A DNA stretch of 64,000 nt. Origin: Neophaeotheca triangularis. Its lineage: Eukaryota. Position 1 is the first letter of the stretch; each line of letters starts with the position of its first letter. Below, piece by piece: positions 1-58,086 of the stretch. Where the stretch lies: NCBI GenBank assembly GCA_054600435.1, contig BAAIJX010000032.1, positions 62,001-126,000 of the forward strand. Direction: 5' to 3'. A program made the position numbers and the translations under genes. The notes beneath the pieces were generated by a model, which saw nothing but the letters and a program-made list of their open reading frames with translations, had not been told where the DNA came from and did not search any database.

Positions 1-1599
1 AGGATCTTGTAGGATCCCGCCAAAATATTTCGCCAGCTCATTGAAGATCTTCATACTAGGGACGATGTCATTACGTGGGCTAACTAGTAGACTGTTATAG
101 AGAACAGGTAACTACTAGCGACACCTACCTATACCGCTAACTTGAGAGCCTTAGTACTATTAGTAAGCTTAAGCTCTTCTAGAGGTTAGCGCGCCGATCG
201 CATAGTCGACAACCTAAATAAGGTAGCTAAAGTCGATAGTACGGAACCTAAAGGTCGAGGAAATGAGTCTAGAACTAGAAAACGCAGCTAGGAGAAGCAG
301 GCTTAGGGTAAGAAGCATTAAGGAAGATAAAAGCGTTAAAGCTAAAGGCGCTAGACTCTAGCTCTAACCGTCGTCTCGGTATAGCTCACTATGTGAGCGT
401 AGATCCTTTTCCTTTTCCTTTTACTTTTACTCTTGCTTATAGGTAGTGGGTAGGGGATCGGGCTATATGCTCGAAATAGGGCTATAGCGTTTTAAAGGTA
501 TCTACCTTGAATAACCTTCTAGAGCTTGGTTAGGCCTCGTGGTCTACTTCGTAAATGTCTGCGTTTAGGGGTGTGAGCATGAACGGAACCCTATGAAAAC
601 AAAACTAAAACAAATTATAGCTAGCTCTAGGGCGGAAGTTGCTAGACACTCTAATAGTAAGTGGGATGAGTGTGAAAACTCGAAGTAATGGCGGAGGCAG
701 GAGGGTATAGGAGGGGGGGGTATGAGTAGGGATAGAACACAGCAAAAAAAAAAAAAAAAAAGGGAAAGACCACTCTTAGCTAGTAGGTAGAGGCTTTAGT
801 CGGTGACGCCGAATAGTGATGACTAGGAGGAGAGGCATAAGCTCCGGTGTAGGTAAGCGCGCGATATGGCAGCAAAAACAAGACAAAAACAGAATATAGG
901 TAGGGTATAGAGATAGCGATGGCTGCTTTAACGGGACCTTGCTTTCTAGGTAGGAAACAAAGTCGGGCGCGAGGGTGATATCTGAGATAGTAATGAAGGG
1001 CGTTAGTGGTTTAGTACGAAAAGGTCGGCCGCCTAGTGGCGAAGAGGAGGGAATTATGCTGTGAGTAAGGAGGCCTTGGGTCAAGTAGCCGTTATACGAG
1101 GGAAGAAGGAGTAAAGAGACACTACCTAGTGTAGCAGCAATCTACGGGTTTGCTACGAGCATAACAGAAGCCTAGAAGGTACGTTGTCGCTTATCTAGAG
1201 AGTTTCGAGCACTCACTAATACTTGTCATCTAGTAGGAATATTAACTACTCTACCTACTCGACAAATTAACTAGACTGGGGAGACTAAGCTCTCTTGAAG
1301 CACTTTTAGCTCTTTCCGACGCCTGCAGCTATAGACCGTAGATGCTCGTTACTAGGCCATCACGACTTAGTTGTTCCGAGCACTATTACCCGTGTGACAT
1401 CTTCACGTTAGAACAACAATTTGGCGGTACTAGTACTTAAGACAAGATATACTCGAGAGGTAAGCCGAACATTGTAACCTAGTGAGTAATCATTAAGCCA
1501 AGATCCTCGATGTCTCCTGCACTATACTCATATCGTGAAGCCGCTACCTTAAAACCCCCCCCCTACTCGACCCAAACCCCCTTAAAGCACCACCGTATC

Positions 1600-2559
1600 A
1601 TGGGCCCTACACGCTAGTTTTTCGGCACGCGCGCTAGCTACCCCTACGACTATGACCGCACTCCCTAACAGGCCTCTATAGCTACCGACCACTTCCGTAC
1701 CGACCGCACTAGCCCCCTCTACTAACCTAGCGTCGACGGCCTCAGCTTAACTCTCTAACAAGATCTCGACGAAGCTCGTAACGACGATAGCGAAACACTA
1801 GAATATAGTGCTTCCGCCTTTGTCCTTAACAGCAATGCTTTGGTCGAGCTTATCCCTCCCGTTATCGGTCCCTACGCTACTAGAGCTTAAAGCCTAGCAA
1901 CTCTATAGCTACTAAAGACCGGCCTAACCCTTCCTTAAGCTTTATCGCCTAGCTACAAACTCTCCTAAGCGTTATACTTTCGAACAGACGAGTTTTCATG
2001 ACATGCTGCGACATGGTAACACGATTACGATAAACACGAGCGTCAGCTTAGCGCTTCGAGCTAGCCGAGCCGTCTCACGAAGGCACTATCCGGCCTCTAA
2101 ACGGAACGACCTAGATCCGTTACGCTAGGGTAATACCTCACTACTTTTAGCTATACGAGCAATCTATCTCGCTAACCTAGCGGTAGCTAAATACTAAAAT
2201 ATCGCCTTAACCTCGTATTAAGGGCTACACCTAGCTAAGCTGTACTGTTAGTAACAGCATTCGAAAACCTTCAAGAAGCTTCTCGAGTCCTAGTATCGCT
2301 TATGGAAACTGAGCTTATGGCGTATTACTGACCTATAATCGCCATCATTCTATGTCGAGATCTCAAACATAGCTGTAGGCAGTTACAGGTTCCTTTAAAA
2401 GGCCTTTAAGTCAAGTAGCTCACATGCCTAGTGCTTCTCGCGCAATTCAGGGGGTAGGACACTAGAGGCTTTACCGCTACCCGAAGACCATACTAGGCTG
2501 CCTAGACTAGCCTTAGGTAGTTAGGAACAGGATCAGGTATGCAGAATATGTGCTAATAG
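1600..2559 (+). pseudogene. RIP-inactivated ORF of ~320 codons, unknown product
   Basis: ATG at 1600 opens a protein-like frame (MGPTR*FFGTRASYPYDYDRTP...AVLLVTAFENLQEASRVLVSLMETELM...) with stops mostly TAA/TAG plus two TGA, all explicable by C>T or G>A. True end uncertain. Confidence 0.5.
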
Positions 2560-2849
2560 GAGTGTAGGGAAGACAAGAGTCTAGAAAAGGTACTTTGCGC
2601 CATTAATAGCGCTATAGGTAGAAGGATCACGCTTAGTAGATAGTAGTAATTGATGAATAGTAGCAATTGATGATGAAAAATCAGCCCAAGTTCTCATAGA
2701 CTCTCTCTAATGTAATGCTTGTAAACATCGCTAATTTGTAGTATACAAATAACTACCCCCGGTCATAGCTTATAGATATAGTTAATGAGACGACCAATCT
2801 CACGTTGTGAAGCTAATCTATACAAGCGTAGAATCTAACTAACTATTTA

Positions 2850-4620
2850 CTGTAAATGCATAAGGTCTCCTTCTAATCTACACAGTGTTCACTTGCTCCC
2901 CGTTCTATCTCATAACTAATGAACCTCGGGTAGACCACATGTGTTACGCCTTAGTAGCGTGGCGGTCTCGCGAAGTAATAGCGTAACAACCGTTAACGGG
3001 CGTCTATCTTAGGTAGGAAATGGCACGACAGCTATCGCCTCTACGCTCTCTCGACAGAAAAGAGTATGCGTCGTAGTGTCCTGAAGTGTAAGGTGTAGTC
3101 GCTAGTTATGAACGCGTGCTATCGGTAGCTGTCTCGGACGACTTCGCCCGCTACCTCATAGATAAGCGATTTCGTTCTAGCTAACATCATCAACTATATG
3201 TGTATGATGAGCTAAGACTAAGTCACTAAGCACTAGTCGGTAGTCGGATCTGCTTGGAAAGGCGCTACTTTAGGAGCCTTAACATCTAGCCGGGTGCTAT
3301 AGACGGTAAGTCCCGATGACCTATAAGCTGTAAAGCAGGCACTTTCGTAGGTAGATAGAAAGTCGTAGCATAGGTTCGGCCTCTAATGTGCGTCTTAGAG
3401 AGAGAAGAATGACACCCACATACATGTGTACTACGCCGGAGAGTCACTTCGGTTATTAGTAAAGAGTGCTTCTAGCGGTAGGCCATGAAAGAAGGTGATA
3501 TGCTCCGTGACGAAAGAAACATAGGAAGTGTGAATTTGTCGTATCTTCTATCGTAACTCTAGTACGGTATACATTTCCTAGTGAACTGGCGTACCCGCCA
3601 TTAGTGAATTGGGTGCCTAGAGCGACGCGGTGCTAACATGTAGCAGCTTTAGCGTTTCTTCGTATACTTTCGAGCTCTACGGCTAAGCTTGATCTAGTAA
3701 TCTATCTGGCCGGTATCCCTAATGTGGAGGAGATAGTTACTAGGGCGTTTATTCGGGTTACGGTAGCACTACCTATACGGCAGTACTACTCTACGAGTGT
3801 AGAGAGGCACCTTTGTAGCGGGCCGGAGGGTTCCCGTACGACGTGAGTTGTTGTAGGTAGGTCTACTAGAGATACGCGCCGGATTACTTCGAGTGGCAAG
3901 ATCCCGACAAAGCTAGTGGTTAGATCGAGCATTGTGGCGAAAACCATGGCAATGCCTTACGCTGTCCTACTAGAGACATCACTAATAAGGGTTTGGCCTC
4001 GTCGATCTCGAAGGAAATGTAGTCCGTTAGCTGTGATCTTAATGTCGTAGTAGATTCTAATTGATACTCTAGATAGTGATGAATAAACCAATCGCGACGA
4101 CTAGGTAGTTAAGGTGTTTTACTAATGGTCTAGCATATGAGTCGTAGTGACTTCCTTGAAGATTACTAAGTGGTCGTCGCTCCTAAGGCCCGGGAAACAT
4201 TGATGCCCCACATAGCTCTAAGCCGGTTTGTAGGTCATCCTCGGAAACCCCCTCTAGGCTGATCTGTTTAAACATAACCCTATCCCCTACCCCTACCCCC
4301 CCCCCTCCTTATCTCTCTTCCCTAGGTAGGTTAGATGTTCCTTTCCTAGGATTACAGCCTTATCTATAACCCTCTCGACAAGATGTTCTGGAGCCTACCC
4401 CTTCTAGATCCGCGCATCTACTACCCATCTCCTAGTATAGGCAGCCTACTATCAAGTCGTCCTTTCGGTCGACGAGGTGGATACGACGGTTACTCTACTA
4501 GTATAGAGGTGCTCGTAGGTTGTATTCCTAGTGCTAACGTGCTCGTAGGTTACTTATCGGTTACGGAGGTAGATGCTATAGTTGCTATACCGGTGCAAAT
4601 GTGCGTGTTAGTTACTCTCT
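2850..4620 (-). pseudogene. RIP-inactivated gene relic, unknown product
   Basis: One minus frame reads as plausible protein when stops are read as Q/W (RRGGGRGRG...LRAMWGINVSRALG...RDWFIHHYLEYQLE...YEETLKLLH...IHTSYVSFVTEHITFFHGLPLEALF); possible short intron near 3383-3423. Boundaries approximate. Confidence 0.4.
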
Positions 4621-5003
4621 ATTAGTCATGTAAACGTTAGTTGCTTTACCGGTCGCGGAGGTAGATACCTTAGCTACTAAGTCGGTCGTAAAGATGAATC
4701 GCACGTTGGTTTCTCTTTCGGTGAAATGTAGGTAGATGCTACGGTCGCTCTATTAGTCGTAGAAGTAGATAGCATAGTTGCTTTGTTGATTAGATAGAGG
4801 TAGAACTCATAGTTTTTGATTGGTCGCGGAGGTAGATACCCTCCCTTAGTCGAGGGGGTAGATGGCATAGCTACTCCCTTCGCGGAGGTAGGTAGTATAG
4901 GAGTCCTATCGCTTACGGATGCCATGATTGCTTTGCCGGTCGAGTTGCTTTACTAGTCGCGGAGGTGCTCAATCGTTGCTCTATTAGTCGTAGAGGTAGG
5001 ATC
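4489..5003. repeat. Degenerate ~30-33 bp tandem/clustered repeat
   Basis: Recurring variants of GTTGCTTTACCGGTCGCGGAGGTAGAT near 4489, 4549, 4640, 4744, 4777, 4812, 4943 and 4975. Confidence 0.65.
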
Positions 5004-5659
5004 TAATGCCTATAGGGATGGTATCTACTACCGCCTCGCCTACCGTTTCGTCTTAGGCAATCTCTCTTTTCGGGAATCGTCCGCTAACCTACTATATCCC
5101 CTACCGACTCTACTATGACCCTAGACTCCGTCTCTATTAATGTAACCTCACCTACTATTAACTCTCACGTCTATATACCCCTCTAAGAAGAAGGGCCTTT
5201 CCTTTCCATAACGCTTTCGTCTCTACTAACTAGGCCACCACAAGAATACCTACTATCCCCTCGACTCCTATGGTATCCCTTCCCCCTTCTATCCCATTTC
5301 ATTCCCTAGGGTTCCTTAACCCCCCCCCCCCCCAAATTAATCCCCTCCCCTCCCTAGGCCATCCGACTAATCCTATTCCCTCCCCCTCCCCCGGTCTATT
5401 AAATTTACCCGCGCCCTCCTCTATCTAACCCCTCCCCCCCTCCCCTTACGCCTCTACGGCCCCTTCCTATTAGTCTTCCTGTCGGCGATATCTAATTCTA
5501 GAGTATCGTGCCGAAGTGCTTCAAACGCTTCGCAGCTTAGAGGAGGAGCCTGTTTAGTGGACCTAGTTCGAAGACAGTGGGATCTAACCTTCTTTAGGTA
5601 GTAAAGTCAAGCATGACTCCCCGCGCCACGCTGTGTAACAAGCCGAACCTGACGTGACA

Positions 5660-8600
5660 TTAGCTATTAAAACGGAATATTGTTAGCAAGAGGTAGTAAC
5701 CATTATATATGAAGCCCACTAGATTCGTTGATCTGTGCTAGTGACGATTAGGATCAGTCTAGCGGCAACTAGGGTATACCTGAGGAGCGAGCGCAGCTCC
5801 GGCTTGTGCTTTATCTAGAAGTTTGAAAGTATTACGCTGTATTCGCAATTCTTTCAACCATATAATGGCGGAATCGTTATAATGCCCGGCGTGTTACCTA
5901 GAATAATCCGTCTTGATGTGATAACATAACGTTTGAATCGTCAAGAATTACATGTACTTGAGATCCGCTTCTAGGGAGCGGTTACTACTATTAGTAGGGT
6001 AGAGTTTTTGCAACGTTAAGCTACTAGTGTGTCTATACATTAGACCAAGCGATCTCAACGAAAAACTGTACTAGGTAATATTATGCTAGTCGTCGTGTAT
6101 TCCCTAGTATACTAGCATATACTTACGAGGTAATATGGACTTGGGCACGACTGTTATGATATAGGCGTCCAGGTAAGGATAGAATTGGTCTATAAATGAG
6201 CCCTAGGAATCGTTGTCGGTAGTGATAGCGTCCTATCCGCACATCAAGAAGAGCACCTTAACCGGTCTCTACCTGTCACGAGAATACTTGACTAGATCTT
6301 CTAGTAACGCTAGCAGTAGGCCATCCCTCGCTTTACTCGGAAAACTGTCGTTACTCGTTCCCGGATGACGGATGTAAGGCATCTAGACAGGCCCTAGTGT
6401 TAGTAAAGCCGCGATGTTATCGGGATTATAAGATTAAGGATACAGTTCTCGACAATTAAAAGCCAAGTAGTGAGTGCGTATTAAGGTCTCAGCCCTCTTT
6501 TCAAGTTCTACGACGAGCTCATTCTTCTTATACTCTCTACTTGACCTCATGACTAGTATTGTGACATCGAAGTCTTTATTGATGTCGTTAGAGTCGAATA
6601 AGAGTGGGCCGGAGTCATTTCGCCTAAAAAGTGTGATTAGGGTAGAGGTATTATAGGCACGGCCGAAGCTATACGTCTGTTTAGAGCGAATGCCATATCG
6701 GTTACCATAAACTGGATCCTCAATTATCTTAAACGTGGGATCGCAACCGTCAAGTATAAGCTGTAGGGTTTCTCTTAGTTTAGGTAGCGCGTATAGACTA
6801 CTACTATAACTAGCCTATACAGCCTAATGTATCTCGTGTAGGCTGCTAGGGACATCATGTGACTTTAGAAAGTCGTAAATACGACTACGTATAAGGATCT
6901 TGCTTAGAGGCGATACTACATCACTATTACTAGTAGTACTAGGGGTCGTTCCTATCGTGGGAAGATTAGCTAGAGGCTTACTAACGACTAGCTCGTAAAA
7001 CTTCTAGAGCGACTACTATCTTAGTCGTTAGCCATGTTCGATAGGATTAGCTGCCTCGACGACTAGAGCGCCGGTTACGTGTTTCCTACAACTTTCCATG
7101 GTATACTAGCTAGAGTCCTTAGCGTTACTTTACTATAGACACGCTTTATTCAACACCTACTAGTTCACGCTTGACTAACCAAGACTCGATAGATTTGTAA
7201 GCGCTAAGACCTATGGGGGGACATCGTCCGGACCATATCTAGGGCTAGCGGAGTCGAATGCATAAAGCGAACTAATCTCATCATGAACGCTTATTGTCAT
7301 GTGGACCTAATGTGATGCTCCCTTGTTATAGATAACATGTAGATGAGTAAGACCTTATGGTAGGTTAAGCAGCTCAAGGCTAGCTTCTTATGATCTAGTA
7401 AACCATTCATGCCAAGATATAGGCATATAGCCTCGAGAGAACTCTGCCTAGAGTCGATTAATTACAGCCGGGTTTAGGAAGACGTCGTGACTAGGACGTA
7501 ACTACACGGATTCGCGGATCTAATTTAGGTGATACATGATAATAGTATCGTTAGCTTCACTCTCTAGATTGTTAGGCAGGACCACTACCATTTCAAGTAG
7601 CGAAGGTAGTGGTTAGTCCTCGCGGTCTACGAAATGTAGCGAAGTAGAGTTGTTATACCTAGACCTTACTAACTACGCTCTCGAGAGCTGCGTTTCTTAT
7701 AGTAGCGTATTGTAAGATCTCGAGAGCTCCTCGAAAGCCTTATTCTAAGGCGGGCTAGTGGTCTGCTCTTTAAGAGGATTATCACTTCCTAGAGTGTTCC
7801 TAATAGTAGGCCCTTTATTAGTAAGCTCCGCTACAACGCTAGTACGCGTTTGCTCGGCGGGTCTAGTCACGGCCCTAGGCGTATAAGATAGCTCGATGGG
7901 CGAATTAGCAATCCCTAAAGTGTTGCTATCCGTAGGCTCGTGGGTAGCACCTAACGCTATAATGATATCCCGTATTTGCTCGGGTATAATTGTCGCTCCG
8001 GGCGTATAGGACGCTTCAGATCCTTTCTACGTATCGCTTATTTAACGGCTTCTTGTCTCGTTCTCTATACCTATAACGCTAGCGCGCGTTTGCTCGGTAG
8101 GTCTAGTCACGGCCCTAGGCATGTAAGATGGCTCGATGGGCGAATTAGTAATCCCTAAAGTGTTGCTATCTGTAGGCTCGTGGGTAGTACCTAACGCTAT
8201 AATGATATCGCGTATTTGTTCAGGTGTAATTGTCGCTCCGGGCGCATAGGACGCTTTAGATCCTTTCTACGCATCGCTTATTTGACGGCTTCTTGTCTCG
8301 TTCTCCGTACCTATAGCTCTAACGCTAGCCTATGACTTCTCGGAGGGAATTGATCGCCTAGGAGAGCGCTCGCGGTTACGCTCTCGTCCACGTCTTTCTT
8401 TAGAGACGGCTCTTACGTTAGCGTGTACGTCGTTACCTTCCGGCTTGCCTTAGGTTACGAGGATGCTATTCGACACCCCGAGACGGCCTTATTAGTTCAT
8501 GATCTCCGTAGCGATAGTAGGAAAGCTAGTCTTAAGGGTACGTAACACTTACGCGGACGACGAGTTACGTAACGCGAACCTAACCTATACATTGTCTACC

Positions 8601-8760
8601 GAGTTCGGCATTACTCTAGCGCGGATACTCTACTTAATGCTTATAGAAAGCTTCCTAGACTTAGTGTGTTTACCTATCTTTCTTTGCAATGTGTTACCCA
8701 ATAAATTGAGGACAAGTATGCCGCAACGTACGCTCGCCGTAGCGAGTAAGACAGCGCTAA
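5660..8760 (-). pseudogene. RIP-inactivated ~1,000-codon multidomain gene: Ulp1/C48-like domain, winged-helix-like segment, resolvase-like domain, GATA-like C4 zinc finger
   Basis: Single frame without frameshift; all in-frame stops I read are TAA/TAG. Motifs: ANDTIIMYHLN (~7550), NKGASH(W)VH (His 7310-7312), LYAFDS (Asp 7253-7255), (QQ)SNAKDS(G) (Ser 7112-7114), TILVMRSS (6539-6562), PGTS..ARDGLLLALLEDL (6293-6364), VLFLMCG(W)DAITTD (~6215-6256), C-x2-C-x19-C-x2-C after de-RIP (5696-5776). Start codon uncertain. Confidence 0.7.
7835..8315. repeat. 240-bp direct tandem duplication (in-frame, 80 codons) inside the dead ORF
   Basis: 7835-8074 aligns without gaps to 8075-8314; by hand 20 differences, 19 of them transitions. 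Confidence 0.95.
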
Positions 8761-9388
8761 CGCTTAGGAGACCTAAGGCTAACGTGTCTAGAGGGGAGGA
8801 GAGGGGAGAGAGTGCGCGACGTACCTAGTAGCGGAATACTTCTTCTAGTTAGTAAGGAAAAGCGACAAGGCACACAATATAACGGCGACGAGGCCGAAGT
8901 ATGTAGCTAATGATGTTGTTGTCTTAGAACAATCATTGTGCCCTAGTCCCCGTGTATATTAGGGGATGAAGTCAACTAATTAGCGTGCTCCACTCTAACT
9001 TAACAGCGTTAAGAAGGTAGTTACGACTACCCTCTTTCTTCCTCTACTAGTCTCGTATACAAACAGAATGGACCGAGAGGTATACAACCTACCCTTATTA
9101 GTCGCACTTCAGCTCTCTACAATCAATCCATGCGAAATGTATTTTCGTTCGGTATCGATTAGTCGACTAGGAGAGATGCTAACTGTTATATGAAAACGAC
9201 GATTGTCTTCACGTACTTGCCTATTGAATTCATCAGATAATATGTGTTCCGTCGAGTCCGTCTGTTAATCGATCGTGACTTCCGTAGTAATGCCTTCCGC
9301 CTCTATCGTAGCCAGCCTACCTATCTCTTAATAGTGTTAGCTTCCCATTATAAGACCAAATCACTCGATCTAAACGGGTACATCACTA

Positions 9389-10215
9389 TCGACATAAGCT
9401 GGGAAGGCTCTTCCTCTTATATCCCTTATCGACATGAGCTAGGAAGGCTCTTCCTCTTCTTCTCGCGCGGCTATGTCGACATAAGCTAGGAAGGCTCTTC
9501 CTCTTACATCCCTTATCGACATGAGCTAGGAAGGCTCTTCTTCTTCTTCTCGCGCGGTTATGTCGAAACGAGCTAGGAAGGCTCTTCTTCTCGCGCAGTC
9601 ATGTCGAAACGAGCTAGGAAGGCTCTTCTTCTCGCGCGGTCATGTCGAAACGAGCTAGAAAGGCTCTTCTTCTCGCGCGGTCATGTCGAAACGAGCTAGA
9701 AAGGCTCTTCTTCTCGCGCGGTCATGTCGAAACGAGCTAGAAAGGCTCTTCTTCTCGCGCGGCCATGTCGAAACGAGCTGGAAAGGCTCTTCTTCCTCTT
9801 ATATCTATTGTCGACATGAGCTAGGAAGGCTCTTCTTTCCTCTCTTCCTCTCGCGCGGCTATGTCGAAACGAGCTAGAAAGGCTCTTCTTCCTCTTATAT
9901 CCGTTATCGACATGAGCTAGGAAGGCTCTTCTTTCCTCTCTTCCTCTCGCGTAGCCATGTCGAAACGAGCTAGGAAGGCTCTTCTTCTTACGACTATTAA
10001 TTGTCGACATGAGCTAGGAAGGCTCTTCTTTCCTCTCTTCCTCTCGCGCGGCCATGTCGAAACGAGCTAGGAAGGCTCTTCTTCTTACGACTATTAATTG
10101 TCGACATGAGCTAGGAAGGCTCTTCTTTCCTCTCTTCTTCTCGCGCGGCTATGTCGAAACGAGCTGGAAAGGCTCTTCCTCTCGCGACTATTATTAACAT
10201 GAGCTAGGAAGGCTC
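9389..10215. repeat. Higher-order tandem array, 19 copies of a ~25-bp core
   Basis: Core TCGA(CAT/AAC)GAGCT(A/G)G(G/A)AAGGCTCTTC; successive periods 40,47,40,47,41,41,41,41,41,43,53,43,53,44,53,44,53,40. Confidence 0.97.
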
Positions 10216-10687
10216 TCTCTCTCTCTCCGTCTATACGAGCACATCGATAGACACTAGTCTCTATTGTCGTTAAGGAAATGCTAGGTAGACTAAGGGAACT
10301 AGACAGCGTGACATGTTTGTATCTCCGCCCTTGGCCGTAGTAGGACGAACGAAACTACAAAGCTTCGTTAGAGCTAATCTTTCCTGAAAGAGAATGCGCA
10401 ATGTTACACTACTATCTATGACCTCTCCTCTATGCTAACATGAGCTCTTGAAGTACCATCGTATCGACTTATCATCGGCGTATAATCAATTCATTTAGTC
10501 GGCTAATGAGTGCGCGAAGGACGAGTTAGGTCTGTTTAGTGATGATGACCTCTCTACTTGCCTTAATAACACAGCTTATCAGGTCGGCAGTCGGCGCTTG
10601 AGAGCTCCGAAGGACAGTTTGGGACTTGTGGTCCAGCTTGACGACACGCGCTGCCATTGATGAAAGGACCTTGACACCAACCCACTC

Positions 10688-10716
10688 CCACCACCACCAC
10701 CACCACCACCACCACC
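10688..10716. repeat. (CCA)n microsatellite in the STT3 5' leader
   Basis: About 9 CCA units just upstream of ATG 10732. Confidence 0.9.
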
Positions 10717-10731
10717 CATTCCGCCGCCACT

Positions 10732-13271
10732 ATGGCTGCCGATACCAAATCCAAGAGCATCGGCGCTCCCTTTTTCGAGGGGGAGAGCGGACGAAACACC
10801 CGTGGTCTGCTACGCTTGATCATCTTGTGCACCATTGCTGGTGCTGCTGTAGCGAGCAGATTGTTCTCCGTTATCCGCTTCGAGAGTATTATCCACGAAT
10901 GTCGGTCATGCCCAATGCAATCACTACCAAGAATATGAACTGATGTGTTTGTTCAGTTGACCCCTGGTTCAACTTTCGAGCAACAAAATACCTGGTCAAC
11001 CATGGCTTCTACGACTTCTGGGATTGGTTCGACGACCGTACGTACACTCAATGGTTGTAAAGAGACAACGGAGGGAAAGACATACTAATACTGTGTCCCA
11101 CAGGAACATGGCATCCCCTTGGTCGCGTCACAGGAGGTACCCTCTACCCCGGCCTGATGGTCACCAGCGGTGTAATCTACCACGCCCTCCGATTCCTCAC
11201 CTTCCCCGTCGATATCCGCAACATTTGCGTACTTCTTGCGCCAGGCTTTTCCGGCTTCACCGCCGTAGCTTCCTACCTCTTTACCAGTGAGATGAGCGAC
11301 TCACCGAGCGCAGGTCTTCTCGCCGCAATCTTCATGGGCATCGCTCCCGGTTACATCAGCAGGTCTGTTGCTGGCAGCTACGACAACGAGGCGATTGCGA
11401 TCTTTTTGCTGGTCTTCACCTTCTACCTTTGGATCAAGAGCGTGAAAAATGGCAGTATGATGTGGGGTGCGCTCACGGCGCTCTTTTACGGCTACATGGT
11501 CAGCGCTTGGGGAGGTTACGTCTTCATTACGAACTTGCTGCCACTGCACGCTTTCGTGTTGATCTGCATGGGACGCTTCAGCCCGAGGCTGTACGTCAGC
11601 TACACGACGTGGTACGCACTGGGCACGTTAGCGAGCATGCAGATTCCTTTTGTTGGGTTCCTGCCAATCAGGAGTAGCGAGCACATGTCTGCCCTGGGTA
11701 TGTTGAAGTTCTTTCCGACTTGACCGAACGCAGCTACTAACACAGCTCAGGTGTCTTTGGGCTCATGCAGCTTGTCGGTTTCACGGAATATATCCGTGGC
11801 CAACTCCCCTCAAAGCAGTTCCAAACCTTGCTTTATGCCATGATTCTGACCGTGACCGGTGTGGCGTTCGGTGGGCTCGTCTTGCTCACTGTCTCTGGCA
11901 CTATCGCCCCCTGGACTGGTCGTTTCTACTCCCTATGGGACACCGGTTATGCCAAGATTCACATCCCAATCATTGCATCCGTCTCCGAGCACCAGCCAAC
12001 CGCCTGGCCAGCCTTCTTTTTCGACCTGAACATGCTGATTTGGTTGTTCCCAGCGGGCGTGTACATGTGCTTCCGCAGCTTGAAGGATGAGCAAGTCTTC
12101 ATCGTCATCTATGCCGTGCTCTCGTCCTACTTCGCCGGCGTCATGGTTCGCTTGATGCTGACCCTTACACCGGTTGTTTGTGTCTCTGCGGCTATCGCAC
12201 TGAGCCAAGTTCTCGACACTTTCCTTGTCGCCTCGACGCCGGACAGCGCCGCCGCCGAGGAGAACTCCAAAAAGTCTAATGGCAGCGCAAACGGCTCAAC
12301 AGACGTGCAGCAGAAGATCAAGGCTGTGATCCCGGACACCCTGCGCAGCACACGCACACCACTGGTCGGCATCTACTCGTACCTGTCCAAGTCCCTTATT
12401 GCTGGAGCCATCACATCCTACCTACTGCTGTTTGTGCTGCACTGCACATGGGTCACCAGTAACGCCTACAGCTCGCCTTCCGTGGTCTTGGCTTCACGCC
12501 TACCAGATGGCAGTCAACACATCATTGACGACTACCGTGAAGCATACTACTGGCTACGTCAAAACACCAAGCAAGACGCCAAGGTGATGTCGTGGTGGGA
12601 TTACGGCTACCAAATCGGTGGCATGGCAGACCGCCCAACTCTCGTTGACAACAACACCTGGAACAACACCCACATCGCCACTGTAGGCAAGGCCATGAGT
12701 AGCAGAGAGGAAGTCTCGTACCCAATCATGCGCCAGCACGAAGTCGACTACGTCCTTGTTGTCTTCGGTGGTCTCCTAGGATACAGCGGCGACGACATCA
12801 ACAAGTTCCTCTGGATGGTTCGTATCGCTGAAGGTAAGCACAACGAGATTTTCCGGCATCCCATCGATGAAAGAAGGATCCACTAACATTATAACTGCAG
12901 GCATCTGGCCCGATGAAGTCAAAGAGCGCAACTACTTCACCTCGCGCGGCGAGTATCGCGTGGATGACCAAGCCACCGAGACCATGCGCAACAGCCTCAT
13001 GTACAAGATGTCATACCACAACTACAACGCGCTTTTCCCGGCCGGCCAAGCCACCGACCGCGTCCGAGGCAGCCGCCTACCCGCCGAGGGCCCCGAGCTC
13101 AGCACTCTCGAGGAGGCTTTCACGAGCGAGAACTGGATCATCAGAATCTACAAGGTAAAGGACTTGGACAATTTGGGCCGGGAGCACGGCGCTGTTGCTG
13201 GCTTTGAGAAGGGGCAGAAGAAGAAGAAGGCGGGCAGGAGAAAGGGGGCGAGGGTTTTGAGGGTGGAGTAA
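10732..13271 (+). CDS. STT3: Oligosaccharyltransferase catalytic subunit STT3
   Basis: Exons 10732-10900, 10957-11037, 11104-11697, 11751-12833, 12901-13271 with GT-AG introns; motifs [45 protein letters not shown]. Confidence 0.98.
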
Positions 13272-13680
13272 GTGGTTGTTCAAAGAAATGAGGTAGATCG
13301 TTGTATCATAAGATGTCTAGCCTCTTAATGGGTTTGGTAACCGGTGGTTTTCAAGAGTGTTTGAACGCAATCCTAGTGAGCCGCCCAAGGAGTTCGTGCC
13401 GGATACTAGGCGAGTGGCCTTGTACTAACGTGGCGAATGATAGAGATCTATGGTCAACTTTATGTCACCTATGCCAGTAACAACGCCGCTCAATCGAAGA
13501 CTTGTAGGCCTTCTTCATCGCCTTCCCTTTTTCGCCTCCAGTAAACTTTTCAACAACTCGAAGCTCGACATCTGAACCCTTCTTCGTGCCGCTCACGAAC
13601 TACCCTACGTTCAATCCCTACTAAAAGGGCCTCCAGAGAGCCAGTCCACTGCTCAACGTTCAGCACAGCCCTAGGTCCAT

Positions 13681-14003
13681 CTCTGATTACTCAGGGCATA
13701 TCTCAACCTCGCCCACGAGGGCTGCCTATCAGCCACTTGAACCATTCGACGTCTAGTACCTCTGCAACCCCAACCTCTATCACCCTGGTCATACCTCAAC
13801 CTCGCCCGGTGAGGGCTGCCGTGAAGGCACTTTCCTACATTCAACCCTTGTGCAATCCCACTCTGATCATCCGGGCCATACCACCATGTCATCCGGGAGG
13901 GTCGCCTTTGATACACTTTAACCGCCTAACCCTTCCGCAATCCCACCTCAATTACTCAGGCTGCCGCAACCTCGTCCGGGAAATGTCTTCAAGGCATTTG
14001 GCC
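13681..14003. repeat. Four highly degenerate ~85-95 bp repeats, possibly part of a decayed gene
   Basis: Related units begin near 13681, 13775, 13861 and 13946 (CTCTGATTACTCAGGGCATATCTCAACCTCGCCC-like); on + they read PSLITQGISQPRP / PTSITLVIPQPRP / PTLIIRAIPPCHP. Confidence 0.45.
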
Positions 14004-15249
14004 TTTACTTTATCTGCACCAACTTTTCAACCTCCCTCCCCTCCCCTCAACATCTCGAACCTCATCACTGCTACGGATTCGAGTAATACTAACAGTCTTT
14101 GATGCACTCACTGCAAGATGCTGGGCTACAGGGCGGAGGAAAATCGAATTTACTAGATGTTTTATCGGCAGCGTTCGACTTTATTGGCCTATACAGACTC
14201 TCTGCCTTCGTTCGATACTACATCGATCAATCGAGGCCGTTCTCTTAGCGGCCTTGAATCGGAGTTTCCTTAAAACGTGCGATCATGCGACTCATTAACA
14301 AAGCGTGACTCGATGCAGATTCAATCGTTATGCAAGCCTTAGATTGGTCTTGATCTCGCCATCTGGAAAGGATCTACTAACTTCATTGAGAATCTTGCAT
14401 CTACGACGCGTTGAGCATTCTTCATCGGTCAGCTATGGTAGGGAAACCATCAAGGGTCACGGCCCGAGCGCCCTCTACAAGAGCCATTGAGTTTTACGTA
14501 TCTTTGAGGCCCTATCTTTCGACTCTCAGGGTACTGGAGACTCGGTACCACTACGCCTCCTTCGAAGACGCCTCGCATCACACCTACGCTCTCTCGCTAG
14601 ACCGTGAGTCTCGCTTCTTTGTCAAAGCAGGCCTAACCCGTATCACTCTTACGTCGCCATGGATCATTAAACGCGACAAGTAGCCGTGTGGTTACCAGGT
14701 CATCGGGGCTGTGCGCTGGCGAGCGAGCAGGTACTCGAACCCCGACTCTTCTCTCGGAGTGGGTGACTGTACTAATATGATCGAATTTGAAAGGCAAGCA
14801 TCGCAGCGCCGGGTCTTCAATTCTAGTCCGTGAGTGTTCTGGGCGCGAAAGCGCGATGAGATGATAAGTCAATCGCTCTTCGCGAAAGTATATCTTTGTG
14901 GTGGCGAAAGTTGCCGAGGACATAGTTCTCTGGTGCCACCGTGACTTGTTTAGAGATTTGATCGATTTTAGACAGTCGTGACTGCATGCATTCAATTCTA
15001 GAATTGAAACAAGTGCAGAAGAAAAACTTCCGTTGGAAGCCGATCTCGACAGTCTGTCCGTTTTCGGCCCATTACTAGCGCGAAGGGCATTGAGCCAATT
15101 GAAGTCGGAAGCTCTACCCCGGATTCCAGCTCCGCCAAGATTTCGACAACTTTCGCCTCCAACCTAAATCTCCAAAGTCTTCCTGATTCTCCCTCACTCA
15201 GTCATCCTTCCCTCACAAAAGAAGGACCAACCACGACAAATCCGCCGTC

Positions 15250-16092
15250 ATGCCTCAGAACGAGTACATCGAGCGCTTCCAAAAGCAACATGGCAAGCGC
15301 ATGGACCACGAAGAGCGGACCCGCAAGAAGGCCGCTCGTGAAAGCCACCATGCCAGCGAAAAGGCGCAAAATCTGCGTGGTCTGCGGGCCAAATTGCACC
15401 AGCAGAAGCGTCGCAAGGAGAAGATTCAGATGAAGAAGCAGATCCGCGCGCAGGAGCAAAAGAATGTCAAATCCTCGGAGCCCGCGCAACCCTCCAACAC
15501 GCCTTTGCCATCCTACTTGCTCGACCGTTCCAACACCACGAATGCGAAAGCGCTCAGTTCGGCGATTAAAAACAAGAGGGCGGAGAAGGCGGCCAAATTC
15601 TCGGTGCCTCTGCCCAAGGTCAAGGGGATTAGCGAGGAGGAGATGTTCAAGGTGGTCAAGACGGGCAAGAAGACTGCAAAGAAGAGCTGGAAGAGGATGA
15701 TCACGAAGCCGACGTTTGTCGGGCCTGATTTCACCAGGCGGCCGGTCAAATACGAGCGCTTCATCCGACCCATGGGTCTGCGTTACAAGAAGGCCAACGT
15801 GACGCACCCCGAGCTGGGTGTTACCGTGCAGCTACCGATCATTTCGGTCAAGAAGAACCCGCAAAACCCAATGTACACTCAGCTTGGTGTGCTTACCAAG
15901 GGTACGATTATTGAGGTCAACGTGAGCGAACTAGGAATGGTGACGGCTGGAGGCAAGGTAGTCTGGGGCAGATGGGCGCAAGTTACGAACAACTGTGAGA
16001 ACGACGGTTGTGTGAACGCGTAAGTCGAGTTATGCTCCTTCACTGATGAAAGAATTCGAACGCTAACACGGCCCAGGGTGCTGCTTGTTTGA
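15250..16092 (+). CDS. NSA2: 60S ribosome biogenesis protein Nsa2
   Basis: MPQNEYIE start, [55 protein letters not shown]; intron 16020-16076 then terminal AVLLV*. Confidence 0.98.
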
Positions 16093-19000
16093 GCAAATAT
16101 TTTCTGTTTACGATTTGTCTTCCATAGAGCAGAGCAGGTAGATAAGCCTGTAGCATAGCGATGGAGTTCGGACGGGACCACGACAGGCGTTGCTTGCAAG
16201 GGAAGATTAAGCTTCGCGAGGAATTTATTTCAGCGCTCTCGGGGTTTTCACATATATTGTAAAGCTCCAATGCCAAAAGTTGCTTGCACCGCATCCACAC
16301 CTCGGACGTGCCAGTATCTACGTCGGGCGATGCGACGTTTCGATGAAGAGACCGACCTTGGCAAGAGCACGACAGGTTTCTGGACGAGGAGTCAGAAGAG
16401 AATGGGCGCAGGAAGCAGAACCCGAACACCACAAAGCTCGCCTTCAGAGCGCTTAGGCGATAGGCCTACAACTAAGCATGCAAATGGGCGTGCTGAATAT
16501 AGCAGACATACTCCTATCATGTAAGCACACTGCGATTCGAAGATTCTCGAGCCGAGTATGAAATCTTTCTTGGACATAAACTCAGGTAGGAGGTTTGAAG
16601 GCAACGACAAGACAAGAAGCCAACCCTTTTAGTCGCGCTTTCCGCCGTCCAGCAAATTCGCTAACCAAAAGCAATCGGTTGGCTGAGAAGCTCCCATTTC
16701 AACAGACCTCTAACCCTCACCTTTGGGCAACAAGCCCGCCCATCAATCAAGCCATCACCTGCCATGGGTATCATTCATTTTTCGCCTCCTATTCCGACTG
16801 GCTCAGGTCTACTAAGAACAACATTTTACCCCAAGAGTCCATCACGCATGCCGATGGCCATGCCCATCAACCTAACCTAACTCTCGCGGCTGCAGCGCGA
16901 AACAACGCCACGTACAAAAGCAGCGCCGTTGCAGAGACAGCCAAAAGTCGCACAAGAGTCGTTCGGCTTGGGCTGCAATCATGTGTCGCCTACAAGACTG
17001 TGCGGTACATGCGTACACACTGTAACATACTAGGTACTAGTACTGTACACCTCTGCAGCCCGAAAGAGCGAGGGAAGCGGTCCTCATTCGGCAGCCTGTG
17101 GATCGCGAGGCTGTCGCGCACGTGGGACTGGTGATACTGTAGAGGAGGGGGAGGGGTGCAGGTTTGCTTTCCATTTGCTTTACTCGCTTGCTTTACTCGC
17201 TTGCTGCCCTGCTTTCCCTTGTTGTTATCGCTGCAGTATCTTTGATTCTTGCTTGCTTGCTTGCTTGCAGTCGCACCGCGAGGGTACCTAGGTACCCGGC
17301 CTCGGTAAGCAGAGTGTGTACGGGTGATTATTATTGTGTGAGGCGAGCGAGCGACGGGATCGAAGGGTCTGGCCTCTACAGCCTGTTGGGGTAACAGCAG
17401 CTGTTGCTGCATTCCGATGGTCTTCTGGGTATGAGAGTGGTCGTTGGTCAGGGGGGCCTCATTAGTTGGGCTCTCGTCGCTTTCCACCATTACCTCATTT
17501 GCAAGGCGAACACGGCTGGTAGCGACGGCACAGACTATTGTTGAGCCTCTCTCGCTTTCTCTTTGCCGTTCATTAACCGGACGTCAGGGTGGCCGGGACC
17601 ATCGCCGCGTGGCAGCGGCACGGTCAACGAGGGAAAGCTGACAGGCTGGTCGTACACGGATTGAAACAATTATTTGCCAGGCATGCAAAAAGGTCACGCT
17701 TCGGACGGTGCAACCTTCGTACAGCTCGAAAGGCAAAAGCAAATTGTGTTTCTGCCACAACATCTCATCATACTTGCGGTGAGCTGAATTGCAGCTGACG
17801 AACTTCCGGCCAAGTGTTTTACCCATCGACCCACGTCCAGGTTTTGAAGCAAAGAGGACGGGATCTGATAAGTTTGAAATAGAGTTGACGGGCGGTGGCC
17901 TACCGCTACTTTTGGCTTCTTCGACAGCCTATTCTAGGACCTGTCAATTAAGAGGGGCACCGCTATGCAGATCGTGGTGGAGGGTCATGGACCATGGTGG
18001 GGGACACGGGATCTGTCACGGTGGTGACGGCTCGGGCAGGCGGGTAGTAGTTGTATCATCAAACAACGACGAAGCGAGGCAGAGCCACAGCCAGTCTGCC
18101 TTTCCCTCTGATTCCTAAGCGAGGAGCACGACAGCAAGAGTCTAAGGTTAGGTAAAAGCTCGATGGCTTCAACTCCAGGTGAGTCAATCTCCCTTGAGGA
18201 TCAATCGGGGGAGATGCCAGCTTGCTCCAGGCATGATGATGTTGCTTTTTGGGCATAAATGAGACCGACCATGTCCTTTATTGAAGATGTATCATTGTAT
18301 CCGCCTGGCGCCATGATCCTTGTCAGCTCCCCCTCCAAGGTTCGGGCCATGGCTTGGGGCTCCCGCTTTCCCTCTATTATCTCTCACCAAATGCACCTAT
18401 CGGAACAGACAGTTTTGATGGGCAGGCAACTGACTGCGCGGGTGGTTAGACTGGCTCGCTCAAACCTACCAAACAACTGACCGACATTTGTAGACCTCAC
18501 CTCGAGAATCTACCTTGTTTTCCTGTAGTGAGTGCTTGCTCGATATGAGACTTTTGGGGTATCGCGCAAGTCGGGGCATCATGAGGTGTGTTTCCTTGAG
18601 ACAAGAGGCGTGATCGCTAGGTACTGTATCGTGTGTACCTTGGGCTCCCTCTACCACCAGTCCAGCATGCACTCGGCGGGACATCAAGAAGAAGAATAAT
18701 TGGACAGCTTGAGCGCTGCAGCAGTAGTCTCATGCATGCAAGCCCAATCTTCTGGTCGCGCGCCCTCTGCTTTGCTTGTCGGACTAGTATACTTACTACC
18801 TTGTAGGTACAGTAGGTATGTACATAGTATCTATCATGGCAGTGCCTGATGGAGAGATACTACTACTACTGTATCTACATACCTACTGTAGCCTTCCTAA
18901 AGCCTCCGGAATACTAGTACAGTACTTATCCCCAACCCCACTCGGGTGTGTCTTCCAGGCTTGAGGCTGTCTTTGGGCTTTAACTTAGTAGTCCAAGGAA

Positions 19001-32954: not shown

Positions 32955-33969
32955 AGCGAATGAGTGGCTGTAGCCCAAGGCGACGTGGGTGGTGAGCCGG
33001 ATTCTGACACGTTAAAGCTCTTCTGCTGTAGGTTTGGAGGTTAGAAAAGGGTGAGGGCGCAAAGAAGACGGGCCGGCCTCGACAGCAAGCAAAACAGAAG
33101 AGTCAAGCTATCTGTACTTATGCTGCGGTAGGTGTAGTATTCACCACTGAAAGGGGGCTTGAGAGCGCGTGCTGTGCTGAGCGATTATGCGGCGACCATG
33201 CATGTGCGTGCGTTGGCTAGAGTGGTGAGGTTATAAGTCAGGGTGGAAGCAGAGAAGCCCAGCCGCATAAAGACAATAGAACCTTGAAGGTGAGGTGGGT
33301 GCGAATGGTTGTGGCGGCCGCCATGCGAGGAAGCTTAGCCGAGAACGAGGCTTTGTCAGCAAGGGCTGTCCGACAAACACGTGACCCTAGCAGACATGAT
33401 CTCGGGAGTTTAGCATTATAAGGTAAGGAAGGTAACCTGTTAGGACTTGGCAGATTAAGAGCATGAGCAGTGGCCAGAGAGATACTACTTGTAGTCAGGA
33501 GGTAGAAAATTACTTGGCCCCATTCTCGGATCCTCGCATTCGTACGCCTACCCAGTACTGTACCTACTAATAGCACCTTGGGTACGGTAAGGTACCTACT
33601 GTAGTAGTATACCTCGAGTATACCTAGGTAGGTAGTTTTCCTTGGCAAGACGTCAGCCCATTCGTTTCCAAGTACAGGTACCCTAGGTAGGTACCTACCT
33701 TACCTCAGCAACCAGCTTGTCTGTCCAGAACACGAGCTACCTACTACCTACTACCTACTACCTACTACCTACCTACTACCTACAACTACCTCCATTACCT
33801 GCTCTCCTCCCGTACTCGTCCTCTCCATTGCGATCGGCTAGCTCTATACAAGCTGGTGCTTCCTTCACAACAACTTCTCCTGCAACTGGAAGCAATAACG
33901 GAACTTGTGCCCTAATCTGATTGCCTGAATTCGTCCAGCGCCGGGTCCCTCCCATTATCGTAACCCATC

Positions 33970-36612
33970 ATGGCAACTCTCAACACATCCTCCAACGGGC
34001 CCTCCATAACACAGAGCTACCAAAAGGTAGTCCAGTCGCCCCCGTCCTCTGGCTCGGCTGCCTCTTCCTCAACCTACGGCCAATGGGCGCTATACAGCGT
34101 GCAAGCCCCTCTTGTCAGCGCCTTCCAGGCTGAATCTGGCAAGGAGAGTGTGCTCAAGGTTCAAACGACGGGCGAGGGCGAGCTCATTGATCTGATCGAA
34201 GATTTCTCCGATGGCCGCATCCAATTCGCCTTTGTCAAGGTCAAAGACAGCAATTCGGGCCTGCCCAAGAATGCCCTCATCTGCTGGTGCGGTGAAGGCG
34301 TTCCGGAAAGGACAAAAGGCTACTTCACCTCGCATATGACGGCCGTGGCTAAGCTCTTGCATGGCTATCACGTCCAAATCACTGCGAGAAGCTCTGAGCA
34401 CTTGACTCCCGAAGCCATTATGCAAAAAGTGGCAGACTCGAGTGGAAGCAAATATGGCGGCGGAAGCGATGAGGCCTCCGCACCTAGCGACGGCCCACCT
34501 CTCCCAGCTGCTTCCAAGCCAAAGCCGGCGATGCCAACCAAAACCTTCGGCGCGAGCGGTGGTGGTGGAATGTACTCGCTGGGCGGCAGAGCAGCTCGAT
34601 CGCAAAAACAGAGCTCTGACAATGACGGCTGGGGAGAGGACGCGCCTGAAGTTACACGGTCGCAGCTGGAGAAGGTGGCACCAGCATACCAGCCGACCAA
34701 GGTCAACATGTCCGAGCTTCAGTCCCAAAAGCAGACATCAAACTACCAGGCACCCGAGAGAGGCAATGGTGGAGCAGATGTAGTCAAAGGCGGCTACCAA
34801 CCCGTCGGCAAGGTCGACATCAACGCCATCCGACAGCAGGCGAAAGAGTCTGGAAACTTGCAGGATGACCGACCGACAACAGTGAAAGGCACGTATGAGC
34901 CGGTAGGGAAGGTGGACATCAACGCTATCAAAGCCAAAGCACAAGGCGCGCCTGCACAAGCCGAGCCTTCTCCCCCAGCGCAGGAAGAGGAACGCCCGCA
35001 GAGCCTTGCAGAACGCTCAGCTGCCTTTACTTCTACGGATGCGCCTTCTGAGCGTATGACCAGCATGCCAAAGCCAAAGGTCGCCAACCGTTTCGGATCG
35101 CAAACCAGCTCCTTTGCCGGCACCAAAGCACCCACCCCAGGTGGCTTTCCCGAATCCAAACCAGCCGCAACAGGTGCACCTCCAATTGGTGCCGCGAGTC
35201 GAACGTTCGCTGACGAAGGTGGAAAGACGCCTGCGCAAGTTTGGGCGGAGAAAAAGGCGCGCGAGCGTGGTGACAGCAACCCACCGGCGCCTCAGGTAGC
35301 ATCCAACACCGGGGCCTCGGGCACCGGGCCTGCCTCACCAATCGCAAGCCAGCAGAGTGGGCAATGGCAGTCTGGCTACGAGGGCAAGAAGTGGGGCGTT
35401 CAGATCCCCACCCGCACTGGCGGCAGCGGTGTCAGCGCGCAGAAGACCGGCCAAGACGAGCCACCGGCGCAAGACGAAGCTCAAGAAAACGAGCCCCCAA
35501 CAGGTGGCGTTGGCTCTATCCGCGACCGCTTCGCAGGCGCACCACCCATGGGCGCACCATCTCAAGCCCCAGCACCCTCGGCACCTTCGCCACCCGCTGC
35601 GCCCTCCGCGCCCTCCCCACCACCCCTCGACACAGCCTCGAAGCCCAACGCCGGCGCTCGCGGAGTACCTATGCCAGGCCTACCCCAGCGCCCCGCCGAG
35701 GACGAAGAGGAGGAGGAAGAAGAGCAGCAGCGCAACGTGCCCCGCGAACAGCACCAAGAGCTGCCCCCACCACCGCAACCCGCTCACCCCCGCGACGAGT
35801 CCCCCGACCAAGAAGACGAGCCCTACCCCCGCGGCTCCCCCATCCGCGTCGCCATGCCCGTCGCGCGCGACCCCTCTCCCGCGCCCCTCCCAGCTCCAGA
35901 AGCCGAAGGCCCCCGCTCCCCTCCTCCCATGCCCACTGACAGCATCAACGACGCCATCAGCGCAAACAAAGAAGCCGACATGGAGCCAGAGCCGCGCATC
36001 GAGGAAAACGATCCCGCCCGCGGCGCAGGCCAAGCGGCCGCCACAGGCAATTTCGGCCAAGCGCAAGATGTCCGTGGCCAAGGCAACGGCGGCGGAAAGT
36101 CAGCTGTCGCGCAGTACGACTACGAGAAGGCCGAGGACAACGAGCTGGAGCTGCGCGATGGCGAGAGGATCAGCAACATCGAGATGGTGGACGAGGACTG
36201 GTGGATGGGGCAGAACAGCCGGGGCGAGACGGGCTTGTTCCCTAGCAACTACGTGGAGCTCGTCGATGACAACGACGGTGGTGCTGGTGCTCCTGCATCT
36301 CAAGCCGCTGCTCCCACGCCTGCTGCGGCACCTGCTCCTGCTGCTGCCCCCGCCCCTCCTGCCGGGGGCAAAACGGCCGTCGCACAGTACGATTACGACG
36401 CCGCTGAGGACAATGAGTTGAGCTTCCCGGACGGTGCTACGATTACTGGTGTGGTGAGTTCAAACCCCTGACGTGTTTGATTACGACGAACAAAGGATTT
36501 TTGACTGATTGATGTGCGTTTATAGGAATTCCCAGACGACGACTGGTGGTTCGGCCAGTACAATGGCAAGAGCGGCTTGTTCCCTGCCAACTACGTCGAG
36601 TTGAACAGGTAG
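33970..36612 (+). CDS. ABP1: Actin-binding protein Abp1/App1 (ADF-H domain, Pro-rich linker, two SH3 domains)
   Basis: ADF-H (DFSDGRIQFAFVKVKD...WCGEGVPERTKG); SH3 AQYDYEKAEDNEL...DEDWW...GLFPSNYV; second SH3 completed by intron 36454-36525 (EFPDDDWW...LFPANYV). Confidence 0.93.
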
Positions 36613-57541: not shown

Positions 57542-58086
57542 GGTTATAGTTCGTACTACCTAGGACGGGTATAGAGATGCAGTAGGATGTGTATGAGATA
57601 GATACTTAAGGTATATTATATACTTGTTATATACTTTATCCGTGGGGCAGACTAGGAGGTAGGTAGTAGACTAGTAGGTATGTAGTCTAGTACTGGCAGT
57701 GGAATGTGTCACGTGGCGAGCAGAGAGACTAGAGCCCTCGATCGACTATAATGAGTAGAAACAAACCTTCGGTACCTTCGGCAGATGGTTTAAAACTTGA
57801 GGTTGTTATTAGAGAAGGAGAATGATAATAATAGTAGTGATAACACGTGACGGAACAGTAAACGTTGGGCGGGCCGAGAGCAGGTAGTATACACCTTATA
57901 CCTTATTATTGTTACTGTTATAATAATAATACCTGGTGGTGAATTACTTACTACTTCTTACTACTTACCTACTTCAGCATTTGCCTGACTTCCTTCCTTC
58001 CTCCCTTCCTGACTTCCCGACTTCCCTTTCTTACCTCTCCACACCAAACCACTTCTCCTCTCTTCTCTCTTCTCTCTTCCTTCGCC

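Follow-up and report, generated by a model that had tools for sequence, protein, structure and literature searches.

A RIP-killed multidomain gene behind a direct-repeat array in Neophaeotheca triangularis, possibly the end of an undescribed fungal mobile element

Does a block of fungal DNA that is scarred by repeat-induced point mutation (RIP), and in which an array of direct repeats is followed by the remains of one large gene, represent the end of a mobile element? The question is raised by contig BAAIJX010000032.1 of the Neophaeotheca triangularis assembly GCA_054600435.1, of which positions 62,001 to 126,000 of the forward strand were analyzed (64,000 nucleotides, here called the window and numbered from its first letter). 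A first reading of these letters (the original prediction) had proposed a new class of mobile element whose lead gene encodes a serine-recombinase-like protein. We are nearly certain that the gene family and its RIP relic are real. Our favored reading of the locus as a whole is tentative: it may be one end, killed by RIP, of a mobile element whose family in the Pezizomycotina is undescribed; in such an element the array would be the binding platform and the first gene would encode a mobility protein with a diverged serine-recombinase-fold core.

The gene was recognized from a minus-strand frame that runs from 8932 to 5168, 1255 codons, without a TGA. In dinucleotide-preserving shuffles of the block the longest TGA-free run was 542 +/- 113 codons (maximum 941), and 1255 codons were reached in none of 300 shuffles. 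Between 5500 and 9100 on the same strand, TAA and TAG account for 56 of the 58 stops. BLASTP aligned residues 498-991 of the frame collinearly, and in a single frame, with residues 533-1092 of P0002, an intact hypothetical protein of Hortaea werneckii (E 2e-24), and an alignment of 10 rows, comprising nine relatives and the window copy, extends the homology to about residue 1113 of the frame translation. These results bear out the prediction of a single long frame hidden by RIP stops. The change that RIP makes in a tryptophan codon is TGG to TAG; of the 885 alignment columns in which 6 or more relatives are represented, 12 have Trp as the majority residue, and the window codon is TAG in 9 of the 12. 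The two copies of a 240-bp tandem duplication in the N-terminal part of the frame differ at 21 sites, 20 of which are transitions. When the relatives were compared with the whole window by tblastn, matches were found at 7609-6119 only. Pfam gave no match on the window translation of the dead frame, the Ulp1 region included, and a word-indexed protein search with frame residues 440-1130 scored none of 7999 candidates.

The relatives were obtained by a HMMER scan of 1.84 billion representatives with the RIP-degraded window frame as query, which returned 9 proteins at E<=0.001, 2 of them at E<=1e-10 (best E 1.5e-16). All nine are intact, with lengths of 647-1869 residues, and they share one order: a variable, low-complexity (disordered) N-terminus, a helical region, Peptidase_C48, a winged helix, a domain of about 300 residues and a CxxC...C motif. 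The conserved region of about 300 residues, an alpha/beta domain, has no Pfam model. Residues invariant in all 10 rows of the alignment include D937, R950, S952, R967, S1016, D1059, K1199, R1235 and N1236 (P0002 numbering). The cluster to which P0002 belongs is small (3 sequences, 4 contigs). Further searches for family members added none: a word-indexed protein search with P0002 residues 900-1260 found P0002 itself only, one with the family alignment, confined to proteins of 3272-5000 residues, gave no match, and metagenome pattern scans for the relatives' loci with two family alignments gave 177 and 394 pattern matches, of which 0 were confirmed.

None of the nine relatives has a known transposase or tyrosine-recombinase Pfam domain, and identities of the gene as DDE, KDZ, Zisupton, Ginger, MULE, Crypton or Starship captain were rejected on this ground. 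Full-text searches of the literature, whose coverage excludes subscription journals and Repbase, returned no paper that describes a fungal element or protein with an Ulp1-like/winged-helix/alpha-beta/Cys4 architecture; within that coverage, the earlier statement that no fungal element of this kind has been described still stands. The dead gene is thus supported as a member of a real multidomain family for which we found no published description.

The individual modules can be followed in the relatives even where the window copy has decayed. Peptidase_C48 was detected in 4 of the 9 relatives at E<=0.01 and in 6 of the 9 at E<=10, and as had been expected the Pfam model is matched above its gathering score of 20.7, namely by P0002 (27.2 bits) and P0010 (24.5 bits). 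The Ulp1 catalytic motifs H-W, D-S and Q-x-N-x-x-D-C-G are retained in the relatives. The window copy retains His and Asp, has TAA in place of the Gln codon and has TCT (Ser) where the catalytic Cys would stand. The winged helix is of forkhead type and lies N-terminal to the alpha/beta domain, so that a DNA-binding module precedes the putative catalytic one. The relatives conserve the Cys4 motif, which is degraded in the window copy. Of the domain order originally predicted, the Ulp1-like domain is therefore upheld by Pfam in the relatives and the winged helix by a fold match, the Cys4 motif by the relatives only, and the resolvase-like domain at the level of fold and motif only.

The zinc-binding parts of the family are variable. 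The C-terminal finger is of C2H2 type in three relatives, gives a weak GATA match in one and is absent from the others; the GATA-like finger that had been anticipated is thus confined to that single weak Pfam match. Such a patchwork of zinc fingers is a pattern common in transposon proteins. A Zn2Cys6-like cluster was also observed between the Ulp1 and winged-helix regions of P0002, P0004, P0007 and P0008 (Pfam Zn_clus in P0008, E 4.6e-6); it is absent from the window copy and from P0005.

The dead gene lies within a block whose RIP signature is continuous. The composite RIP index is above 0 in 21 of 21 bins (500 bp, positions 1-10,500; range 0.40 to 1.98) and below 0 in 10 of the 11 bins to the right of 10,500, the lone exception being 0.06. 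At 11,000 the GC content changes from 0.43-0.49 (left) to mostly 0.51-0.62 (right). The index values, the 20 transitions among 21 differences and the Trp codons turned to TAG agree with the marks of a RIP-mutated repeat (a high TpA/ApT ratio, a low (CpA+TpG)/(ApC+GpT) ratio and transition-only decay), and RIP across at least 10.6 kb implies that it once had a duplicate. No sequence shared between the block and the rest of the 64-kb window was found by blastn, and Rfam and tRNA scans of 1-16,000 gave no match.

The right edge of the block was located by comparison with other sequence data: X1, a public sequencing run that is probably the source of the window and contains all of this stretch; X2, a second isolate of the same organism; and X3, a further run. 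An X2 contig matches the window at 95-99% from 10599 to 18000 and diverges at 10598/10599, to the left of which it continues for 40 nt that are GC-rich and unlike the window; a search of the window for a 17-nt piece of this divergent end, with <=2 mismatches allowed, gave no match. Because the X2 contig departs so sharply at this point, the block is a structural polymorphism. The RIP signs end at about 10,565, some 35-100 bp short of the breakpoint, and the final 33 bp of the block are free of them. The boundary originally placed at about 10,565 thus holds as the limit of the RIP signs, and the block itself ends 33 bp further out. On positions 1-10,598 the X2 contigs gave poly-C matches only and X3 gave none, blanks that do not prove absence. 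These X2 matches, all short, fall in a G/C-homopolymer-rich, low-complexity stretch directly behind the dead gene (5168-5500, with poly-C at 5320-5354), the only part of the block to have any. Taken as a whole, we consider it rather probable that the block is, or was, mobile.

Between the gene and the breakpoint lies the array, about 820 bp long and divided into three sub-arrays whose periods are 87, 41 and 97 bp (Tandem Repeats Finder and a repeat finder). The motif GAGCCTTYCYAGCT, allowed <=1 mismatch, matches the 64-kb window 19 times, with all 19 matches on the minus strand and all 19 inside 9397-10215; 0.09 matches are expected by chance, and 19 were reached in 0 of 100 shuffles. A direct-repeat array of 19 copies had been predicted. 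With the cuts placed at the core, two types of unit can be told apart: 11 units of type A consist of the core, then GTT-TCGACATG and then a CCGCGCGAGA tail, and 8 units of type B of the core, then CATGTCGA, which is the reverse complement of the TCGACATG octamer, and then an AT-rich tail. A coding array was ruled out; its periods (41, 87 and 97 bp) do not keep to multiples of three, and the array is therefore non-coding. The distance from 10,216 to the end of the RIP signs at about 10,565 measures about 350 bp, in agreement with the spacer length first given.

What the protein would do depends largely on the alpha/beta domain. The predicted fold of family region 167-525 alone is a beta-alpha-beta domain (predicted local distance difference test, pLDDT, 72.2; predicted template modeling score, pTM, 0.77), with strands at model residues 35-41, 96-102, 140-147 and 169-178, a hairpin to 195-201, a poorly modeled Cys-rich stretch and a helix of 30 residues (264-293). 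When the model was compared with 48,161 representative chains by VIA-align, serine-recombinase catalytic domains came out on top: 10 of the top 26 rows are such by title, IS607-like TnpA among them, and the count becomes 12 of the top 26 with 3lhk and 3g13, which we take to be serine recombinases as well. The aligned ranges begin at model residues 32-35 and at chain residues 1-5 (model 34 corresponds to residue 1 of gamma-delta, model 32 to residue 1 of phiC31), and simple offsets of these ranges would, for several hits, put the invariant R41 and S43 of the model on the catalytic Arg and Ser of serine recombinases. The catalytic S12 of phiC31 is named in the title of its structure entry; for the other offsets the catalytic serines were assumed to be S10 in gamma-delta and Bxb1, S9 in Sin and S15 in TnpX. 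The R-x-S motif, which lies 0-2 residues past strand 1 of the model, is invariant in all 10 rows, the window copy included, and the same is true of an Asp after strand 3. The long helix aligns with the E-helix region of large serine recombinases. As modeled, the domain most resembles the resolvase fold, with a serine in the right place.

Several results speak against a serine-recombinase core. In gamma-delta resolvase, D67, R68 and R71 are the Asp and the conserved Arg residues after strand 3; in all relatives the invariant Asp is followed by G-L/I-T/S-T and not by the resolvase Arg, other invariant Arg residues being found elsewhere in the domain. The Pfam Resolvase match that had been expected (PF00239) was obtained neither from the 9 relatives (E<=10) nor from the window translation (E<=1), and when the family domain was compared by hhalign with 27 aligned genuine serine recombinases, the probability was 0.09% (E 0.58). 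The family profile, compared with all PDB sequences, found weak Ulp/SENP rows only and no recombinase. Since the Pfam, hhalign and PDB profile searches are all negative, the domain stands outside PF00239 by sequence. The structural model was, moreover, built on 9 sequences only, Foldseek gave no match at E<=0.001, and ESM Atlas searches with the domain of P0008 and of P0002 gave no usable match. The alpha/beta domain may thus be a generic three-layer scaffold (P-loop-like or other), with another activity or none and with a coincidental R-x-S match, and we give this explanation serious weight, albeit less than an even chance. It is favored by the negative profile searches and by the best Foldseek rows, which are KaiC, FtsY and SRP54. 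On the other hand, the Walker A motif (GxxxxGK[ST]) is absent from the family alignment, the register of the invariant Ser agrees across several independent structure hits, and serine recombinases, a tiny share of the PDB, occupy those ten VIA-align rows with the numerous P-loop proteins scoring lower. The serine-recombinase-like reading accordingly survives in its nearest solved folds and in the register of R-x-S, and it fails in sequence and profile likeness and in the Arg after strand 3. We regard descent of the domain from the resolvase fold as evenly balanced, and consider it doubtful that the domain performs serine-recombinase chemistry.

Other observations tell against mobility of the block or against the dead gene as its agent. 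The X1 word depth is flat, 135.6 over the block contig and 127.7 on the STT3 side; X1 has no second contig at least 85% alike over 601-9000; and only the right edge of the block is inside the window, the other end, an empty site, terminal inverted repeats (TIRs) and duplications of the target site (TSDs) being unseen. A search of 1-5600 for other genes, by Pfam on six frames with stops read as X, gave none. This null carries little weight, since even the genuine Ulp1 domain of the RIP-mutated frame escaped Pfam; behind the dead gene no other TGA-free run exceeds 663 codons, a length within chance (47 of 300 shuffles), and the further dead genes that had been claimed there found no confirmation.

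Two explanations of the block compete on this ground. The block could be an old segmental duplicate, or a paralogue of a host gene of a rare family, that was never mobile and was killed by RIP, the array being an ordinary upstream minisatellite and the X2 difference a deletion or rearrangement. The missing second copy and the unseen ends suit this explanation, as do the lack of sequence shared with the rest of the window and the annotation of P0002 as a plain hypothetical protein in a cluster of few members. However, a sharply bounded RIP tract of at least 10.6 kb calls for a long duplicate as partner, the X2 breakpoint lies about 35 bp from the RIP edge and 134 bp from the start of an essential gene, and a family of just 9 relatives among 1.84 billion (found with a RIP-degraded query) with variable zinc-finger ends would suit a selfish gene better; we judge a purely host origin improbable. 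Alternatively, the block could belong to a mobile element moved by an enzyme encoded outside the window, such as a captain of Starship type at the opposite end or a transposase of DDE type. The Ulp1/winged-helix/alpha-beta gene would then be accessory or cargo, encoding for example a regulator that binds DNA or a protease of the SUMO pathway, and the array would be either the promoter of this gene or a subterminal repeat. There is room for such an enzyme: the window holds one end of the block only, and the X1 contig that covers 1-9450 is 13,833 nt long and so extends about 4.4 kb past the left edge of the window. RIP and the polymorphic breakpoint fit any repeat or mobile origin, the resolvase match is weak with its Arg pair missing, and Ulp1 domains are accessory modules in several transposon superfamilies. 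Yet, counting inward from the edge, this gene comes first and follows directly on the array, where a mobility gene is usually found; the absence of known transposase and tyrosine-recombinase domains from the nine relatives also counts against an outside enzyme, as does the Pfam null in 1-5600, qualified as above. We consider this second explanation unlikely, though worth keeping in view.

We thus return to the favored reading, a mobile element with the dead gene as its mobility gene. Inward from 10598, such an element would present a 383-bp spacer, the 820-bp array of 19 direct units and one large gene. The winged helix, the zinc modules or both may bind the repeated units; many protomers may assemble along the subterminal array in the manner of IS607 TnpA on its short direct repeats; and the alpha/beta domain may cut and rejoin DNA through its conserved serine. 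Mobility, the array as a binding platform and serine-recombinase chemistry are all points that we infer. A more specific version, which we think quite unlikely as it stands, is that the block is the RIP-killed end of an unrecognized superfamily of fungal DNA transposons, whose transposase would combine a highly diverged serine-recombinase fold with Ulp1-like and forkhead-type winged-helix domains and would assemble on a long subterminal array; such a superfamily would be a counterpart, evolved in eukaryotes, of the serine transposons of IS607 and Tn4451 type. The new class of mobile element of the original prediction has gained an undescribed family, a resolvase-like fold and a polymorphic block, and has lost the sequence likeness to Resolvase and the further genes; we keep it as a proposal only, because there is no PF00239 likeness, the Arg is absent, no second copy at >=85% was found in X1, a single end is available and no cargo was found.

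IS607 is among the closest known systems. It has short direct repeats near its ends and a TnpA whose DNA-binding domain is N-terminal to the catalytic domain (PMC6188088). The family resembles IS607 TnpA (catalytic domains 6dgb and 6dgc) in having a DNA-binding domain before a catalytic-like domain and short direct motifs near one putative element end, and differs from it in most other respects. It has no sequence or profile similarity to TnpA, its proteins are 5-8 times longer and add an Ulp1-like protease, a Cys-rich insertion and the Cys4 motif, and its winged helix is of forkhead type, whereas that of TnpA is a MerR/RacA-like domain. The array, with 19 units over 820 bp, is far larger than the IS607 repeats; it begins 383 bp from the breakpoint at one end, and the opposite end, where IS607, an element type that lacks TIRs and TSDs, would have repeats too, is outside the window. 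The IS607 partner TnpB/Fanzor was not seen with the dead gene. Eukaryotic IS607-like elements are described from amoebae, algae and giant viruses, with an ordinary TnpA (PMC3627910), whereas the host here is a fungus.

With large serine recombinases (the Bxb1, phiC31 and TP901-1 integrases and TnpX) the family has in common the R-x-S register after strand 1, a long helix past the core and a downstream Cys4 module. Large serine recombinases carry a zinc-ribbon domain downstream of the core. They have the Arg after strand 3, which the family lacks. Large insertions, one of which separates helix A from strand 2 while the other precedes the long helix, set the family apart as well. Pfam Resolvase, Recombinase and Zn_ribbon_recom are matched by 0 of the 9 relatives.

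Starships resemble the locus in their Pezizomycotina hosts, in the first gene reading inward from one end and in being strain-polymorphic, often RIP-mutated insertions. In contrast to Starships, the first gene at the observed end is not a DUF3435 tyrosine-recombinase captain, and DUF3435 is found in 0 of the 9 relatives. No mention of Ulp1 was found in the part of the Starship literature reached by full-text search. In Ginger1, Zisupton/KDZ and plant MULEs, the mobility protein has an Ulp1 (C48) domain as a fusion or as a companion, and Ulp1 is mentioned in the Ginger paper (PMC2836005). However, Ginger1, Zisupton/KDZ and MULEs have DDE or RNase H-fold transposases that Pfam recognizes, and the nine intact relatives have no such domain.

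Coordinates of the block, the array, the modules of the dead gene and the flanking host gene (window numbering)
Feature	Position	Strand	Remarks and basis
RIP-mutated block	1..10598		No left edge inside the window; right edge is the breakpoint against isolate X2; RIP indices and X2 contig
Spacer, 383 bp	10216..10598	-	Between array and breakpoint; sequence reading and RIP bins
Array, 19 direct units	9397..10215	-	Unit is a core of 18-22 nt, then TCGACATG or its reverse complement CATGTCGA
Dead frame, multidomain protein	5762..9040	-	Start at about 9040 inferred from N-terminal alignment; homology firm over 7609-5762; TGA-free down to 5168
Tandem duplication, 2 x 240 bp (2 x 80 codons)	7831..8310	-	Within the low-complexity N-terminal part
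Ulp1-like (Peptidase_C48) region	6896..7609	-	BLASTP to P0002, Pfam C48 in relatives, codons
Winged-helix segment	6692..6904	-	Fold match on relative P0008, placed on the window by alignment
Alpha/beta domain, long helix and degraded Cys4 motif	5762..6670	-	R-x-S codons at 6539-6547; Asp codon at 6230-6232
STT3 (oligosaccharyltransferase), flanking host gene	10732..12886	+	Open reading frame list; Pfam STT3, E 6.6e-62 and 8.1e-35

The right flank shows some features of its own. The probable ATG of STT3 at 10732 lies 134 bp from the breakpoint at 10598, and 16 bp upstream of it ends a (CCA)n microsatellite of 9.7 copies (10688-10716), at which Logan contigs of X1 break. A second structural difference is found past the end of the STT3 open reading frame at 12886, where X2 has 139 other letters for 416 bp of the window (14090-14507). 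Small AT-richer, RIP-like islands amid normal DNA occur at 33501-34000 (composite index 1.83), 43501-44500 (1.34 and 0.72) and 57501-58000 (1.11); they have no blastn similarity to the block.

To our knowledge, the well-documented cargo-carrying or cut-and-paste elements of fungi all use DDE, tyrosine-recombinase, Helitron or reverse-transcriptase enzymes, and the only cases of serine-recombinase transposition in eukaryotes that we know of are a few IS607-like elements with an ordinary TnpA of bacterial type. If the recombinase reading fails, the locus still provides an unannotated, rare multidomain gene family and, at 134 bp upstream of STT3, an insertion or rearrangement that is polymorphic. 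If it is true, a fungal family with a resolvase fold and an architecture of its own would add a mobility mechanism to those of eukaryotic genomes, and its new protein domain without a Pfam model would be a possible source of site-specific recombinases adapted to eukaryotes.

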